Sequence record: OZ035741.1
From: Felixounavirus LF82P2
Reading direction: 5' to 3' (one strand)
Length of the DNA stretch: 64,000 nt
Under the pieces are notes generated by a model. That model was not told where the DNA came from, ran no database searches, and saw only the letters and a list, made by a program, of their open reading frames with translations. A program made the position numbers and the translations under genes. Positions 53,922 to 60,224 of this stretch are shown here, piece after piece (the first letter of the stretch is position 1; every line of letters begins with the position of its first letter).

Positions 53922-55703
53922 ATGACTAAATCACTTTATGCAGTACCAGCAGGTTTAAACGCAGATGCTTACAAATCTGGTCATGTTTACCAGTACCCTA
54001 GTGCAACAGAGTACTTGATGTTCAACCTGACACCACGTAGTGACAAATGGTTTAACAGCCCCTTAGCAATTGATGGTGTAGTAGCTTTTGGTATTCAACG
54101 TTTCGTTAAAGATTACTTGATAGACCACTGGAACGCCACTTTCTTTGAACGTGATAAAAAAGAAGCCATTGATGAAATCTTAGAAGTCATGAATGGTGTT
54201 CTGGGTAAAGATGCTATCAGTCGAGAGCATTGGGAAGCACTTCACGACTTAGGTTATCTACCAGTTGAAGTATACGCTGTAGAAGAAGGTACAGTTGTCC
54301 CTATGCGTGTCCCAATGATTGTTTTCCAGAACACTGTTTCAGGTTTCCATTGGGTAGCAGGTTATCTGGAAGATGCTTTCTCTGCTGAGATTTGGAAGGC
54401 TTGTACCATTGCAACTATTGCATTGCACTACAAACGTATCTGTAAGAAGTGGGCTGACCTTACTTGTGACAACGACTTACATTTGCCTTATCAGTGCCAT
54501 GACTTTGCTATGCGTGGTATGTCCGGCTTTACTGATGACGCATTTAACGCTGTAGGCCACTTAACCAGCTTTAAAGGAACTGATAGCTTCCCTGCTGTGT
54601 ATACGGCTAAACGAATCTATGGACAGTCCTACCCAATCTCTGATATTGGTAGCTCTGTACCAGCCACTGAGCACTCTGTAATGTGTGCAAACATTGCTTG
54701 GGAAGGTGGTAATGAGTTGATTGAAGAAGAAAGACGCTTTAAAGGTGAGTTACAAACCTTCCGTCGTTTCTTAACAGAAACTTACCCAACTGGTATTGCA
54801 AGTATTGTTTCAGATACTTATAACTTCTGGAGAACTGTGTCAGAAATCTTACCAGCACTCCGTAAAGAAATTATGGAACGTGATGGTAAACTGGTAATTC
54901 GCCCTGACTCTGGAGACCCTGTACATATTGTCACAGGTTATAAAGCAATCCACTTAGAGTGTGCTAAAAAGGCTTATTACGAGCACCTAAGCAAGCTTGA
55001 AGCCAGCGACACAATGTTGAATGCTGTTCTGAACATGAAGCTTGAAAACATCAATTATGGTATTGCTGGATGGCTACTGTCAGAAGGCTACGAAATGGTT
55101 GTTGACAGAGAAGACTTTGAAGTTGCTGATACAGTGCTGTTGAAAAATGCTTATATGGTTGGTTCTGCAAACGTTGTAACACGTCCTGTAGCGGAGATTG
55201 ATGGAGCTATCAAGACACTGTATAACATCTTTGGAGGAACTATCAACTCTAAAGGTTTTAAAGTACTGGATGAGCATATCGGGCTTATTTATGGCGACTC
55301 TATCACGCTGGAACGTGCAAACGAAATACTGAAGCGTTTGTATGAAATGGGTTTTGCAAGCTCTAACGTAGTGTTTGGTGTAGGTTCTTACACTTACCAG
55401 TACATGACTCGTGACACCTTTGCATTTGCTGTCAAAGCAACTCTTGCAAGCATTGGTGGTAAAGAGATTATGCTTGCAAAAGACCCTAAAACAGATAGTG
55501 GTGTTAAGAAATCTGCCTTTGGTGGTGTAGCACCTATGTGGGATGGTGATAAGCTGAAAGCTGTAGATGGCTATGGATTCCAGAGTTTTGCAGATGTACT
55601 TGACCACCCAGCTTGTGCTTTACGTTTAGTCTTTAGCGACTCTGAGCAGTTTGGTTACACAACTCTTGGGGATATTCGAAATAATATTGACAAGCAGCTT
55701 TAA
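53922..55703 (+). CDS. nicotinamide phosphoribosyltransferase homologue (NAMPT-like)
   Basis: aligns by eye with human NAMPT: NADAYKSGHVYQYP vs ATDSYKVTHYKQYP, CHDFAMRGMSG vs LHDFGYRGVSS, HLTSFKGTDS vs HLVNFKGTDT, SVPATEHS vs SVPAAEHS, IVSDTYN vs VVSDSYD, LVIRPDSGDP vs LIIRPDSGNP. Confidence 0.85.
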   Translation: MTKSLYAVPAGLNADAYKSGHVYQYPSATEYLMFNLTPRSDKWFNSPLAIDGVVAFGIQRFVKDYLIDHWNATFFERDKKEAIDEILEVMNGVLGKDAISREHWEALHDLGYLPVEVYAVEEGTVVPMRVPMIVFQNTVSGFHWVAGYLEDAFSAEIWKACTIATIALHYKRICKKWADLTCDNDLHLPYQCHDFAMRGMSGFTDDAFNAVGHLTSFKGTDSFPAVYTAKRIYGQSYPISDIGSSVPATEHSVMCANIAWEGGNELIEEERRFKGELQTFRRFLTETYPTGIASIVSDTYNFWRTVSEILPALRKEIMERDGKLVIRPDSGDPVHIVTGYKAIHLECAKKAYYEHLSKLEASDTMLNAVLNMKLENINYGIAGWLLSEGYEMVVDREDFEVADTVLLKNAYMVGSANVVTRPVAEIDGAIKTLYNIFGGTINSKGFKVLDEHIGLIYGDSITLERANEILKRLYEMGFASSNVVFGVGSYTYQYMTRDTFAFAVKATLASIGGKEIMLAKDPKTDSGVKKSAFGGVAPMWDGDKLKAVDGYGFQSFADVLDHPACALRLVFSDSEQFGYTTLGDIRNNIDKQL

Positions 55704-55717
55704 AAGTATATGATAAG

Positions 55718-55739
55718 AGGCTCCTACGGGAGCCTTTTT
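55718..55739 (+). terminator. intrinsic terminator
   Basis: AGGCTCC-TACG-GGAGCCT then TTTTT. Confidence 0.65.
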
Positions 55740-55753
55740 AATTTCTGGAGAAG

Positions 55754-56101
55754 ATGATGGATAGCCTTTCTATATGGTTTAACAAGAAACCTGTGCAACC
55801 AAAATACTTACAAGTTGCCTATACAGACATCCTTGAAGTTCTCGGTAAAGAAAAGTTTGAAAAGTTTTGTGAAGGTATCTACAATCACCACTGCCAATTT
55901 GCTACAAAAGAAGGTATGTTTGTCATAGAACAATTCTTTGGCAGAGACCCAGATGACTATGAAGAGATTAGCTTTGTAATGAAATACATGATAGATTATA
56001 TTGAAAATCGTGGATTCGAAGTTAATCCTGAGTTTTATGAACATGAGGGTGTACCTTTAGCAAAAGGTTTTGATGGTATACTCGTTAACTGGACTTGGTG
56101 A
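55754..56101 (+). CDS. hypothetical protein
   Basis: 115 aa ORF. Confidence 0.35.
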   Translation: MMDSLSIWFNKKPVQPKYLQVAYTDILEVLGKEKFEKFCEGIYNHHCQFATKEGMFVIEQFFGRDPDDYEEISFVMKYMIDYIENRGFEVNPEFYEHEGVPLAKGFDGILVNWTW

Positions 56102-56442
56102 AAACTATGAAAATCAAAGAGATGAATATCAACATTGTCTTAGAAGAACGTTGGGAGAATATTAAGAAACCTGAAAATGGTCATAAGTTCCTTAACAAAA
56201 TTTTAGTAGCAGCTAAAGAAGAACTGACTGGTAAGATTGCAGCAGCAATCACAATAAAGGTCTGCGTAAAAGGTCTTCCAGACAATCACCAATTTGCACT
56301 TGACGAGTTTAAAGGAAGCTTCTACAATCCAAACAAACAGATGCTTGAAAGTAACTTTGCAGTGTCTACAAGTATCGTTCATGACAGAAGCTTTATCCTT
56401 TACAAGAATATGAGAGGTGAGTCATGCAAGCATATTGGATAG
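56095..56442 (+). CDS. hypothetical protein
   Basis: 115 aa ORF. Confidence 0.35.
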   Translation: MVKTMKIKEMNINIVLEERWENIKKPENGHKFLNKILVAAKEELTGKIAAAITIKVCVKGLPDNHQFALDEFKGSFYNPNKQMLESNFAVSTSIVHDRSFILYKNMRGESCKHIG

Positions 56443-56600
56443 AAATTTTGCTGTCACTTGGTAGTGTAGCAGTATTTGTTTACCTCCTTTGTAAGTACTT
56501 TGCAGAGCACAAAAAATGTGACTACTGTAATGGAGAGGGGTACATAAGGGCAGGATGTTGCCCTATGTGTGGTGGTTCTGGTAAAATGTTTAATAAGTAA
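56424..56600 (+). CDS. small membrane-anchored protein with DnaJ-type CxxCxGxG zinc-finger repeats (58 aa), absent from the >=60 aa ORF track
   Basis: ATG 56424 preceded by GAGAGGTGA; translation MQAYWIEILLSLGSVAVFVYLLCKYFAEHKKCDYCNGEGYIRAGCCPMCGGSGKMFNK: one hydrophobic helix then CDYCNGEG and CPMCGGSG. Confidence 0.4.
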   Translation: MQAYWIEILLSLGSVAVFVYLLCKYFAEHKKCDYCNGEGYIRAGCCPMCGGSGKMFNK

Positions 56601-56628
56601 TTTAACAGTAAACTGAGAGGAAAGTATT

Positions 56629-58995
56629 ATGCGCATGGTAAATGACCACGCAGAAGTGATTAAGAGTTCAACTTCTTTAGAGACGTCTCAAGCACAGATT
56701 ACAATGACACCTGAGATGTTCAGCCTTTTGAGTTCTGGTGTATATACCTTTAAAGAAAGGGCAGTGATTCGTGAACTGTCATGTAACGCAGTAGATGCTC
56801 AGAAAGAAGCTGGAAAAGAGAACATCCCATTCCATGTGCATTTACCTACTCGTTTTGAGCCTTACTTCGAAGTTCGTGATTTTGGAACTGGATTGACTCA
56901 TGATAAAGTTATGAGTTTGTACCTAAACTATGGAGCTTCTACGAAGAATGACTCTAATGACTACATTGGTGCAATGGGTATCGGCTCAAAGTCACCATTT
57001 GCAATTGCTCAGTCATTCACAGTATCTAGTTATGTTGACGGTGTTGTTAATAAGTACTCTGTTTATCTTGAGAATGGTATCCCTCAAGTAACTAAGCTGA
57101 CAACTAACCAAACAAAAGAACCTAATGGTTTAGCTGTACGTGTGGCAGTTGCTGACCACCGTATCTCAAAGTTCTTTGAAGAAGCTGGGAATGTGTACTC
57201 ATACTTCACTGTAAAACCAGAAAGTAATATTGAGTACGACGATGTATTAGCAGATATGAACGTAATTGCCCGTGAAGAAGGTGTTTATGATGCCATGATT
57301 CATAAGCACAGCTGGCGTTCTAGTGATAACAGGACAGAGTTTAATGTGGTGATGGGTAACATTGCCTATCCAGTGAACATGGAAGCGTTACTTGGTGATG
57401 ATTTCTTCAAAGTCTTGCCAGAGTTTTTCCGTAGGAGCGTAGACCTTGTAAACATCTACATGCCTATTGGTTCAGTTGCTATTGCAGCTTCTCGTGAAGC
57501 ATTGCAGATGAATGACACGACAAAAAATGTTATCATTGAGGCTACTAAAAAGATAACTGAAGCAATTACAAAGGATGTTATCAAAAAGATTAACAATCAG
57601 CCCACACTCATGGATGCTGCACAGGCTTATGCTGAGTTGCGTTTGAACTCACGAGAAATGTTTAATGCTGTGTGTCCAAAGCTAGAGTGGGGAGGCGTTA
57701 AGCTTGATTCTCTGGAAGAAGAGTTGCTAAACATTCGTCGCGGGATTATCTACGCAGAAGACGGCTCAGTCATTTATGAACGTGACGGTAAAGGTAACAT
57801 TAAGGTTGATAGGAACGGAAACAACATCCCTAAAGTAGATTACCTTTATGACCCAGTTGCTTATGTCAAGTTCAACTCTTTAGAGAGTAAGATTCGTGCA
57901 ACAGCACTTTCCTACACTCAAGAGGCAAGTATGTTCAATATCTTTGGTGCAATGCGTAAAAGCCAAATTGAACAGTTTTTGTTTGTTATAAATGACCGTC
58001 GCAATAAAAATGGTACTGAGAAGACTGTAGGACGCAATCAAATCTTGCGTGGTGCATGTCGAGACTATGCCAGTGAGTCTAGTCTGTTTCACAGATACAA
58101 TGGTATTGTCTTTGTATTCTCAACTGAAAAAGAGTTAGATGACCTAATCAATCTACACAAACTTGATAAAAGCTTGTTAAAGATTGTGAAGATGTCTGAT
58201 AAGGAACACCATTATCAGCGTAAAGAAGCTGTAAGAGGTGTTGTAAAACTCTGGAAAGCTGTTCCAGCAGAAGGTGTAGCTTCCTATAAAGAGGTTTCAG
58301 AGGACTTTGATACAATTGAAGAACCCCAGCTTTACATTAAGGCAATTGGTGACACAGTTGATGGTGAATGTTTTTGCTCATCCCCAGAAGATGTAGCTAA
58401 GTCAGTTGCTAATGTTATTGGAAAGACAGTCTATGTTTTCCGAAAAGCAAATTGGAAAAAGATACCAGAAGACTGGATTGAAGTAGATGAGAAACTCTTG
58501 AACGATAGCTTAACTGATGTTCATTGGATTAATCATAACAGGTATATGACACGTATCTATATGAATGGTGTCCTTGACCTTACAAGCAGTTGGATTATTG
58601 CCAGAAACTTTACGTTCAATAACAGGAAGATTTCTCGTGGCTATTGCTATTCACGGGATACAAACAAAACTATCTTCCTAGAAGGTAATGAAGAGGCTGT
58701 AGAGGCAATGTTTGGTAAAATCCAGTATGTTGCTGCACCATTTGCATACACTTACACTATTAGTGTGTTGAAAACTTTGAAAGATTGTCTTGACAACGAT
58801 ACAAAGCTTTACAAGAAAATTAAGAAAGCTGGTGACCGTATGGTTATTAAGGTGACAAACTACCTTTCAAAAAGAAAACAAGAAAACTTCTTGCTTTCCC
58901 ATTTAGATTGGAATAAAGTGTCACCCATCGAAGTGAGTAAGTTCTTAGGTTTTGATGTGAAGTGTGTTCCAGAAGGAACTACAGTTTACGATTAA
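56629..58995 (+). CDS. rIIA: rIIA-like protein (GHKL ATPase fold)
   Basis: N-terminal GHKL/Bergerat motifs: N-box ELSCNAVDAQ, G1 DFGTGL, G2 GAMGIGSKS; 788 aa, comparable with T4 rIIA; followed by a candidate rIIB. Confidence 0.6.
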   Translation: MRMVNDHAEVIKSSTSLETSQAQITMTPEMFSLLSSGVYTFKERAVIRELSCNAVDAQKEAGKENIPFHVHLPTRFEPYFEVRDFGTGLTHDKVMSLYLNYGASTKNDSNDYIGAMGIGSKSPFAIAQSFTVSSYVDGVVNKYSVYLENGIPQVTKLTTNQTKEPNGLAVRVAVADHRISKFFEEAGNVYSYFTVKPESNIEYDDVLADMNVIAREEGVYDAMIHKHSWRSSDNRTEFNVVMGNIAYPVNMEALLGDDFFKVLPEFFRRSVDLVNIYMPIGSVAIAASREALQMNDTTKNVIIEATKKITEAITKDVIKKINNQPTLMDAAQAYAELRLNSREMFNAVCPKLEWGGVKLDSLEEELLNIRRGIIYAEDGSVIYERDGKGNIKVDRNGNNIPKVDYLYDPVAYVKFNSLESKIRATALSYTQEASMFNIFGAMRKSQIEQFLFVINDRRNKNGTEKTVGRNQILRGACRDYASESSLFHRYNGIVFVFSTEKELDDLINLHKLDKSLLKIVKMSDKEHHYQRKEAVRGVVKLWKAVPAEGVASYKEVSEDFDTIEEPQLYIKAIGDTVDGECFCSSPEDVAKSVANVIGKTVYVFRKANWKKIPEDWIEVDEKLLNDSLTDVHWINHNRYMTRIYMNGVLDLTSSWIIARNFTFNNRKISRGYCYSRDTNKTIFLEGNEEAVEAMFGKIQYVAAPFAYTYTISVLKTLKDCLDNDTKLYKKIKKAGDRMVIKVTNYLSKRKQENFLLSHLDWNKVSPIEVSKFLGFDVKCVPEGTTVYD

Positions 58996-59000
58996 AGTGT

Positions 59001-59030
59001 TTGACAAGGGGCTTCAAAGCCCCTTAGAAT
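59001..59030 (+). promoter_or_regulatory. TTGACA-18-TAGAAT promoter-like element with palindrome in spacer (also the hairpin ending rIIA)
   Basis: TTGACA 59001-59006; AAGGGGCTT / AAGCCCCTT palindrome 59006-59025; TAGAAT 59025-59030. Confidence 0.4.
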
Positions 59031-59074: not shown

Positions 59075-60184
59075 ATGACTACTAAAACTAAAGCACAGAT
59101 TGACGCAGAAATTTACAAACTGGTTAAAGAAGGTAAGCTGACTAAAACAGCTATTGCACAGAGATTTAATACTTCAACCCGTTCAGTTGGTCGTGCTGTA
59201 GAGCGTCATGAAGCAACTTTAAAAGGGGATAAGAAGGCAACTTCTACACCAGCTACGAAGACTTTGAAGCAAGTTGCTAAGACATTTAAAAAGAAAGCTG
59301 ACAAACCAGTTGAAAAGGTCGTTAAAGATGCTGTACAGAAAGCTCCAGTAAATAAACTGCATGAAGCTATGCAGAAAGATGACAAAATTGAGTACATGAT
59401 TACTGGCGACTCTGTAATTATGACTTATGGTTCAGAATCTGAAATTGTTGAGTCTACTCATCCGAACTATCAAGAGATTGTAGTTCATGTTGTGAAAGGT
59501 GAGTTCAAGAAAGCCTTTGAACTGATGAATATTCGTAAGTCTATCGAAAACTTCACTCAGGGTGCTATCACAATCAAAGGTGACAAGCTATTCTACGGTG
59601 CTGTTGAGATGCGTTCTACTCTGGTTGACCGTATTCTTCACATGATGAAGACTGGAGATAAAGGCTTTGAACGCCTTGTGATGTTCTTCGAAAAACTGAT
59701 GGAAAACCCATCTAAAGACTCTGTAGAACAACTTTGGGGCTTTGTATCTCACCTTGATGTTGAAATTGATGAAGAAGGCTACATCATTGGTTGGAAGAAA
59801 GTATCTACTCGTGAAGGTAAGCTGGTTGACTCCCACACCTACAAAGTTCCTAACGATTTGGGTAACATTGTAGAGATGCCACGTTGGATGGTTGATAATA
59901 ACCGTAACGTGACTTGCTCTCAAGGTCTTCATGTTGGTGCTTGGGATTATGTTCGTAGCTTCTCAGGTGATACAATCCTGAAAGTTCGTGTCCACCCACG
60001 AGATGTTGTATCTGTTCCAACTGATTACAATGATATGAAAATGCGTTCATCACGTTATGAAGTTGCAGCTATCGTTGATAGCCAGCGTAATGTTCTGAAA
60101 GCATGGGATGGCAAGACTGAAGCTCTACATGTTATCGTTGGTACTGCTGGCGAACTTATTTCTCAGCGTAAACGTGAAATCTAA
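59075..60184 (+). CDS. rIIB: rIIB-like protein (by synteny)
   Basis: 369 aa ORF immediately downstream of rIIA-like gene; no independent motif recognised. Confidence 0.4.
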   Translation: MTTKTKAQIDAEIYKLVKEGKLTKTAIAQRFNTSTRSVGRAVERHEATLKGDKKATSTPATKTLKQVAKTFKKKADKPVEKVVKDAVQKAPVNKLHEAMQKDDKIEYMITGDSVIMTYGSESEIVESTHPNYQEIVVHVVKGEFKKAFELMNIRKSIENFTQGAITIKGDKLFYGAVEMRSTLVDRILHMMKTGDKGFERLVMFFEKLMENPSKDSVEQLWGFVSHLDVEIDEEGYIIGWKKVSTREGKLVDSHTYKVPNDLGNIVEMPRWMVDNNRNVTCSQGLHVGAWDYVRSFSGDTILKVRVHPRDVVSVPTDYNDMKMRSSRYEVAAIVDSQRNVLKAWDGKTEALHVIVGTAGELISQRKREI

Positions 60185-60201
60185 TAAGTAATTCTCTTAA
60201 A

Positions 60202-60224
60202 AGGCTGCTTCGGCGGCCTTTTTT
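60202..60224 (+). terminator. intrinsic terminator
   Basis: AGGCTGC-TTCG-GCGGCCT (one G-U pair) then TTTTTT. Confidence 0.6.

Follow-up and report, generated by a model that had tools for sequence, protein, structure and literature searches.

Felixounavirus LF82P2 (sequence record OZ035741.1) is a FelixO1-like phage (Felixounavirus, Ounavirinae), and the 64,000-nucleotide stretch of its DNA analyzed here, referred to in its full length as the window, contains at positions 56424–56600 of the plus strand a small open reading frame (ORF) that is virtually certain to be a real gene. This mini-gene is a core gene of the Ounavirinae, fixed between the NAMPT and rIIA genes, and is under strong purifying selection. 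Its 58-amino acid product is very probably built from one membrane helix and one four-cysteine (Cys4) knuckle, and the explanation that fits best, although we hold it at even strength, is that it is a single-pass inner-membrane protein that serves as an accessory, membrane-tethered protein-binding module.

The coding status emerges from a comparison of 36 loci, namely the window and 35 relatives taken from annotated phage records and from contigs of IMG/VR. The plus-strand frame is unbroken in all 36, which is the outcome of the frame-conservation check proposed in a preliminary description of this DNA. Among 22 distinct Felixounavirus coding sequences (CDS), the variable sites fall 8/5/30 at codon positions 1/2/3, and the pooled Nei-Gojobori ratio of nonsynonymous to synonymous substitution rates (dN/dS) is 0.072, with values of 0.094 for the transmembrane (TM) part and 0.053 for the knuckle. 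Orthologues in Mooglevirus and Suspvirus share 45–56% identity, and that of Pectobacterium phage Arno18 about 36–41%; in all of these the context of the start codon is maintained and the hydrophobic helix and the two cysteine motifs are present, and a 19-nucleotide overlap with the upstream gene is retained wherever that gene is present. A chance ORF or non-coding stretch, the true feature being an ORF on the minus strand or an RNA element, might have been suspected from the short length of the frame and from its overlaps with the upstream gene and with a 60-amino acid minus-strand ORF at 56454–56636. However, the codon-position bias and low dN/dS, a frame that persists over four genera at 45–56% identity, and a full-length match to PHROG 3931 (E 1.5e-33, 115.7 bits, residues 1–58 on profile positions 1–59 of 59) all contradict this, and the minus-strand ORF is itself broken in most relatives, with an in-frame stop even in Felixounaviruses that are about 95% identical, and one to four stops in the other genera. 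That ORF is spurious, as the preliminary description had already judged, and the comparative data effectively refute the chance-ORF explanation, leaving it a probability close to nil.

The CDS begins with an ATG at 56424, its stop codon ends at 56600, and its product is MQAYWIEILLSLGSVAVFVYLLCKYFAEHKKCDYCNGEGYIRAGCCPMCGGSGKMFNK, within which lie the peptides CDYCNGEGYIR and AGCCPMCGGSGK. The start is preceded by a Shine-Dalgarno region, GAGAGGTGA, at 56412–56420 (plus strand), with a GAGG core at 56414–56417, six nucleotides before the ATG; GGAG or GAGG occurs at comparable spacing in the orthologues of Mooglevirus, Suspvirus, Arno18 and Krischvirus. The first 19 nucleotides of the mini-gene (56424–56442, plus strand) overlap the 3′ end of an upstream gene encoding a 111-amino acid protein, whose TAG stop codon lies at 56440–56442, and an identical overlap is seen in FSL SP-107, Z31, Tribble, Sf19, Mordin, EcSzw_1, Bas63 and FelixO1. 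This arrangement suggests translational coupling of the two genes. The coordinates, ribosome binding site, overlap and product length given in the preliminary description all matched the sequence. Over the 1.5 kb around the mini-gene, identity is 99.9% with Salmonella phage FSL SP-107 and 93–97% with many phages of E. coli, Salmonella and Shigella.

The gene was at first described as unannotated, which is true only of a mechanical ORF track with a 60-amino acid cut-off; elsewhere the CDS has been annotated since FelixO1, and it is present as such in most of about 250 related records. It is the orthologue of FelixO1 ORF131/gp131 (Felix01p243, NP_945023.1), which is labelled a ‘hypothetical membrane protein’, and the same CDS carries the label ‘putative/hypothetical membrane protein’ in Z31 and Tribble, and the note ‘COG0484 DnaJ-class molecular chaperone with C-terminal Zn finger domain’ in FSL SP-107 (AGF89424). 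The Bas63 orthologue is gene 83 (bas63_0083, QXV81774) and that of SUSP1 is AVU07_agp080, which is also assigned to PHROG 3931 in a published knock-down screen (PMC11879866). These are all the same gene as the window ORF, and since the copies within Felixounavirus share 96.6–100% identity, equal length, position and the 19-nucleotide overlap, the window copy is simply another allele. In our literature search the gene was named by accession only in a genome table, and there is no Felixounavirus among the phages of HIDEN-SEQ; the FelixO1 genome paper lists gp131 among five holin candidates (Whichard 2010, PMC3185647). The mini-gene being already catalogued, the finding is a modest one; what it adds is an explicit description of the architecture, statistics on selection, the single predicted zinc site resembling that of anti-TRAP, the conservation of the helix, and data that exclude an obligatory part in rII function. 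We also note that GU169904.1 (Staphylococcus phage SA1) and two ‘Campylobacter’ phage records contain a 91%-identical copy of the mini-gene, which suggests that these records are mislabelled or contaminated.

The C-terminal part of the mini-protein contains two CxxCxGxG units, CDYCNGEG at 56517–56540 (plus strand; residues 32–39, predicted ligands C32 and C35) and CPMCGGSG at 56559–56582 (plus strand; residues 46–53, predicted ligands C46 and C49). These are the only two CxxCxGxG matches in a six-frame translation of the 64-kb window, compared to a mean of 0.16 in mononucleotide shuffles. Residues C32, C35, G37, C46, C49, G51 and G53 are invariant in the family alignments, down to 41% identity, and the cysteine spacing is conserved in related phages, a check that the preliminary description had recommended. 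That description gave the spacer between the units as eight residues; it is in fact six (YIRAGC), such that the four invariant cysteines are arranged as CxxC-x10-CxxC, as in anti-TRAP. The additional cysteine preceding the second unit, C45, is not conserved, and is isoleucine or proline in Arno18 and in database entries P0009, P0096 and P0111. Because there are two CxxCxGxG repeats instead of four, one zinc centre is possible and not two, and from the sequence we consider it likely that the four cysteines bind one Zn2+ in a small beta-knuckle.

The unit itself was correctly recognized as DnaJ-type at the outset, and a profile of 12 family members matches the cysteine-rich domain of E. coli DnaJ (1exk; E 1.4e-10) in two ungapped stretches. 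Its assignment as a DnaJ zinc-finger domain goes too far, since only two of the four repeats are present and the scores lie below the Pfam cut-offs for DnaJ_CXXCXGXG, Anti-TRAP and DUF5351. The knuckle corresponds to one half of a DnaJ cysteine-rich domain, its nearest structural match is anti-TRAP, and the mini-protein lies outside both the DnaJ and anti-TRAP families. The top three Foldseek matches in the PDB are all anti-TRAP structures (3ld0, 3lcz and 2bx9; root-mean-square deviation 0.6–1.4 Å over 23–26 residues, 38–42% identity), and the 12-member profile matches 3lcz at E 8e-3. Bacillus anti-TRAP (RtpA; PF15777) is of similar size to the mini-protein, at about 53–58 amino acids, and likewise has a single zinc site formed from two CxxCxGxG-like units (zinc in the mini-protein being predicted); it differs in being soluble, lacking a membrane helix, and having a C-terminal helix for trimer and dodecamer assembly, whereas the mini-protein has only 5–9 residues after the knuckle (five beyond the last glycine in the window copy) and no C-terminal helix in its model. 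With the DnaJ/Hsp40 cysteine-rich domain (PF00684) the mini-protein has the CxxCxGxG unit in common, the profile aligning ungapped to repeats 3–4 of 1exk and the Pfam match covering profile positions 34–65 of 65. Unlike DnaJ, it is membrane anchored and lacks the J domain, the G/F region and the C-terminal substrate-binding domains; no J-domain family was found in Pfam and NCBIfam scans of the mini-protein, and TIGR02349, the DnaJ equivalog, reaches 18.6 bits where its cut-off is 377. The best Pfam match is DUF5351 (PF17302, a 29-position profile; E 9.3e-4, residues 32–54 on positions 1–28), which adds nothing on mechanism because that family itself has no known function. A hydrophobic anchor followed by a DnaJ-like zinc finger that binds a membrane-associated partner is also seen in the Arabidopsis FtsH5-interacting protein FIP (PMC5915565), although proteins of that type are eukaryotic, thylakoid, much larger and carry a transit peptide, and beyond the repeat motif the likeness is one of analogy only.

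There are a few departures from this pattern among the database sequences. SUSP1 (locus L036 4001–4177, corresponding to NC_028808 57142–57318) has aspartate in place of G39, giving CDECEGSD, and G39 is thus dispensable; by its mini-gene, SUSP1 clusters with Mooglevirus-type sequences and not with SUSP2 and EcSzw_1. Five database entries, P0003, P0005, P0006 and P0007 (63 amino acids) and P0004 (41 amino acids), represent frameshifted or N-terminally altered versions of the mini-gene, in which the shifts are at differing positions and four enter one alternative frame ending in LISNLTVN. Each is a single sequence, compared to hundreds for the intact forms, and these entries may be sequencing errors or rare pseudogenes. 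The CDS contains a run of six A residues at 56511–56516, and a one-nucleotide deletion there would stop the product after 41 residues.

To the left of the knuckle is the N-terminal helix (56430–56507, plus strand), which spans residues 3–28 in an AlphaFold2 model composed of this helix and the knuckle, with a hydrophobic TM core at about residues 5–23. The single hydrophobic membrane helix was noted previously, and its Kyte-Doolittle value over 19 residues (KD19) of 2.11 is of transmembrane grade. The helix is well conserved, with 46–62% identity across genera compared to 25–40% for the non-ligand residues of the knuckle, and the motif MQxYW[LI]E..LS.G is almost fixed in the family. Because the helix outconserves the non-ligand knuckle residues, the alignments suggest that it makes specific contacts in the membrane that depend on its sequence, beyond simple anchoring. 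Lysine and arginine are absent from the N-terminal flank and number 2–6 in the C-terminal domain in all nine family members compared. This distribution, together with the suitability of the cytoplasm for a zinc-thiolate site, favours an N-out/C-in topology, and we moderately favour a predicted arrangement in which the knuckle and a basic C-terminal tail are cytoplasmic.

The family is narrow and phage-specific. When 1.84 billion representatives were searched exhaustively with the family profile, 2022 matches were obtained, nearly all of them multi-repeat CxxCxGxG proteins that match in the knuckle only, and the full-length matches are a handful of phage proteins of 52–60 amino acids. No homologue combining the TM helix and knuckle was found in a single-protein scan of 185,579 bacterial and archaeal genomes, which gave knuckle-level matches only, in unrelated taxa. 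Remote viral matches (L040–L044, and cyanophage S-RIM2) were considered as family members and rejected, as they are CxxCxGxG insertions in large unrelated proteins. The clear homologue outside of the Ounavirinae is in Krischvirus-type T4-like phages, at 42–44% identity. In the three T4-like loci (L007 2495–2653, L050 4001–4177 and L051 520–699) it always overlaps the 3′ end of nrdH, which encodes a glutaredoxin-like protein, by 11 nucleotides, and it lies within a block extending from nrdG/nrdH to gene 55.

Two published screens include orthologues of the mini-gene. The PhageMaP study (bioRxiv 10.1101/2024.10.10.617714) used phage Bas63, which is 94% identical to the window in the mini-gene region, and reports scores on a scale where values below zero denote essential genes; the portion of the data covered here comprises gene 83 scores on host S17, a second laboratory host, two defence backgrounds and QatABCD. 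Gene 83 scores +0.25/+0.11/+0.48 on S17, +1.27/-0.07/-0.17 on the second laboratory host, +0.10/+0.51/+1.16 and +0.39/+0.66/+0.88 in the two defence backgrounds, and +0.77/+0.66/+0.81 with QatABCD. With QatABCD, the values are -1.26/-1.30/-1.61 for rIIA (gene 84) and -1.05/-2.46/-2.45 for rIIB (gene 85), and according to the same study genes 84 and 85 counter QatABCD, and genes 79 and 80 (PRPP synthetase and NAMPT) counter Sir2-HerA. In these data gene 83 thus stays positive while genes 84 and 85 fall, and the mini-gene is therefore not required for rII-dependent escape from QatABCD. In the CRISPRi-ART screen of SUSP1 (PMC11879866), AVU07_agp080 is classed as ‘Not Fit’ with a score of 1.05 from seven guides, and rIIA as ‘Semi-Fit’. 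Within the scores covered, the mini-gene is dispensable under the laboratory conditions screened, both by knockout in Bas63 and by knock-down in SUSP1. The statement in the preliminary description that such small zinc-finger membrane proteins are largely uncharacterised still holds, with the amendment that two screens already cover orthologues of this one and report no laboratory phenotype.

The mini-gene is located within a block of co-directional genes whose order is shared by every Ounavirinae locus compared: PRPP synthetase, NAMPT, a variable small gene, the 111-amino acid protein gene, the mini-gene, rIIA and rIIB. The NAMPT/111-amino acid gene/mini-gene/rIIA order is kept in Felixounavirus, Mooglevirus, Suspvirus, Arno18 and metagenomic relatives. 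The upstream gene (56107–56442, plus strand; FelixO1 ORF130, PHROG 4262) encodes a protein with no Pfam, NCBIfam or PADLOC match; its AlphaFold2 model (predicted local distance difference test, pLDDT, 71) is a beta-alpha-beta-alpha-beta-beta (alpha/beta) sandwich, and its structure matches are weak, non-significant and IF3 C-terminal-domain-like. We considered this protein as a redox partner of the mini-protein and rejected the idea, since the modelled fold is not thioredoxin-like. The PhageMaP rows for the corresponding gene 82 are empty. For the mini-protein itself, PADLOC gives just a weak 12-bit motif match. To the right of the mini-gene, separated by 28 nucleotides, is rIIA (56629–58995, plus strand; PHROG 612, E 8.7e-189), followed by rIIB (59075–60184, plus strand), the last gene of the block, which is annotated as rIIB in Bas63, SUSP1 and UAB_Phi87. 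The block is bounded upstream by a strong intrinsic-terminator-like hairpin after NAMPT (55715–55738, plus strand), with a terminator annotated at the equivalent place in Tribble and Mordin, and downstream by a similar hairpin after rIIB (60199–60222, plus strand). We infer that the mini-gene is co-transcribed with its neighbours. Reverse-transcription PCR (RT-PCR) of FelixO1 shows ORF127–130 and ORF1 (rIIA) peaking at 25 min and ORF2 (rIIB) at 10 min; ORF131 is unlisted.

Several other features of this region are of note. A sigma-70-like, near-consensus promoter (TTGACA-16-TATGAT; 11 of 12 positions) lies within 55687–55738 and ends exactly where the post-NAMPT hairpin begins, such that termination and re-initiation signals abut. 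A second promoter-like site (TTGACA-18-TAGAAT; 11 of 12) is at 59001–59030 in the 79-nucleotide gap between rIIA and rIIB, and may explain the earlier peak of rIIB in FelixO1 (10 min compared to 25 min for rIIA). The variable slot between NAMPT and the 111-amino acid protein gene is occupied in the window by a gene at 55754–56101 encoding a 115-amino acid protein (PHROG 20372); this gene is absent from FelixO1, where ORF130 directly follows nadV, and it is replaced by one encoding a protein of about 71 amino acids in Mordin, SUSP1 and locus L047 (DUF7279 in the last of these). T4 rIIA.1 was considered as a positional analogue of the mini-gene and discarded, being unrelated and having no cysteines and no TM helix. 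Tight co-evolution with rIIA was also examined and set aside, because the N-terminus of rIIA is uniformly 82–91% identical and the comparison reports only on the faster evolution of the mini-protein.

How might the mini-protein act? The anti-TRAP protein acts purely through binding another protein. By analogy with anti-TRAP and with the zinc centre of DnaJ, both of which work through protein binding, we tentatively read the mini-protein as a binding module, in which the helix would insert into the inner membrane with the knuckle on the cytoplasmic face, and the sequence-specific helix and zinc knuckle would together retain or obstruct a partner protein of the host or the phage at the membrane. 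We tentatively suggest that such a tethered accessory binder would act in host or defence interaction; a host- or defence-specific role is the best guess because the gene combines purifying selection with laboratory dispensability, and is positioned between two counter-defence modules with experimental support, PRPP synthetase/NAMPT and rIIA/rIIB. A more specific version, in which a membrane-tethered mimic of the DnaJ zinc centre would be a new type of factor for host takeover or counter-defence, capturing a host proteostasis or membrane-quality-control protein or an abortive-infection effector that acts on the membrane, is unlikely as it stands. The partner could then be DnaK, for example, as the DnaJ zinc centre helps to engage DnaK, or FtsH, by comparison with plant FIP; it would be kept at the inner membrane, and the TM helix would provide a second interaction surface.

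A number of observations weigh against the membrane-tethered binding module or its suggested role. The Foldseek E-values of 0.39–1.1 are non-significant for so tiny a domain, and the family scores all fall below their cut-offs: DUF5351 at 19.9 bits (cut-off 27), DnaJ_CXXCXGXG at 18.3 (32.7), Anti-TRAP PF15777 at 11.7 (32) and RtpA NCBIfam NF058604 at 14.4 (65). The AlphaFold2 model is of moderate confidence, with a pLDDT of 72. In Suspvirus the C-terminal domain carries a net charge of -3 and in Mooglevirus its net charge is 0, and the positive-inside argument for the topology therefore depends on lysine and arginine counts only. The T4-like homologue is far from rII and NAMPT and overlaps nrdH, and the counter-defence role is a best guess drawn from gene neighbourhood alone. 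Finally, there is no gene 83 phenotype in those PhageMaP defence backgrounds that are covered here, and the main text of the study names no gene 83 hit.

The position of the mini-gene raises the alternative that its product belongs to the rII module as an accessory subunit, and would anchor or regulate soluble rIIA and rIIB at the inner membrane. All Ounavirinae loci have the mini-gene directly upstream of rIIA (28-nucleotide gap), even where rIIA identity drops to 40%, and within the terminator-bounded block its protein is the sole product with a TM-grade segment (KD19 of 2.11, compared to no more than 1.3 for rIIA, rIIB and the two upstream proteins). Such a subunit is nonetheless unlikely: with QatABCD, gene 83 behaves oppositely to rIIA and rIIB in the PhageMaP scores covered, the gene at the same position in T4, rIIA.1, is unrelated, the T4-like homologues adjoin nrdH at a distance from rII, and across genera the mini-protein is 34–56% identical, diverging much faster than rIIA (82–91% at the N-terminus). 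The proximity to genes historically called rapid-lysis also recalls the 2010 proposal that FelixO1 gp131 is a holin, made because FelixO1 has no holin beside its lysin (PMC3185647), and the small size, membrane helix and charged C-terminus are in keeping with this or with an antiholin-like regulator of lysis timing that would bind a holin by way of either the helix or the cytoplasmic knuckle. Loss of the only holin would not be tolerated, whereas the Bas63 knockout and SUSP1 knock-down are viable in the data covered; an antiholin, in contrast, would be dispensable for plaques, as observed. The mini-protein has the charged C-terminus but one helix rather than the two or three TM domains of the published holin criterion (PMC3185647). 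Furthermore, Bas63 genes 29, 153, 89, 90 and 123 are annotated as holin, spanins and endolysin, and the 25 min peak of the neighbouring ORF127–130 and ORF1 is not late. We are not aware of a zinc knuckle in any known holin or antiholin, and we regard a lysis-timing function as quite unlikely.

The T4-like genomes point in a further direction, as the constant overlap with the 3′ end of nrdH would fit CxxC motifs that are redox-active, either in place of binding zinc or in addition to it, with the mini-protein acting as a membrane-bound thiol-disulfide oxidoreductase or as a glutaredoxin-like partner or substrate, possibly in the periplasm. The extra C45–C46 pair is common, certain genera have a C-terminal domain that is acidic overall, and DnaJ has been described as having oxidoreductase activity (PMC8262869). 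However, the invariant glycines occupy the positions typical of the zinc-binding knuckle of DnaJ and anti-TRAP, C45 is not conserved, and the lysine and arginine distribution favours a cytoplasmic C-terminus; in the Ounavirinae, moreover, the upstream 111-amino acid protein has neither a thioredoxin fold nor a CxxC motif. A redox role is accordingly very unlikely.

FelixO1-like phages are widely used in typing and biocontrol of Salmonella and E. coli. Small phage membrane proteins are routinely missed or left as ‘hypothetical’, and the mini-gene is an example that belongs to the core of the Ounavirinae. A gene that is under strong purifying selection and yet can be lost under all the laboratory conditions tested bears the mark of a function required in natural hosts alone, and the flanking counter-defence modules and well-understood protein-binding knuckle make the mini-gene a cheap and tractable candidate for experiment. 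If its target were a host chaperone, protease or abortive-infection effector, the family would represent a new class of mini anti-host proteins.

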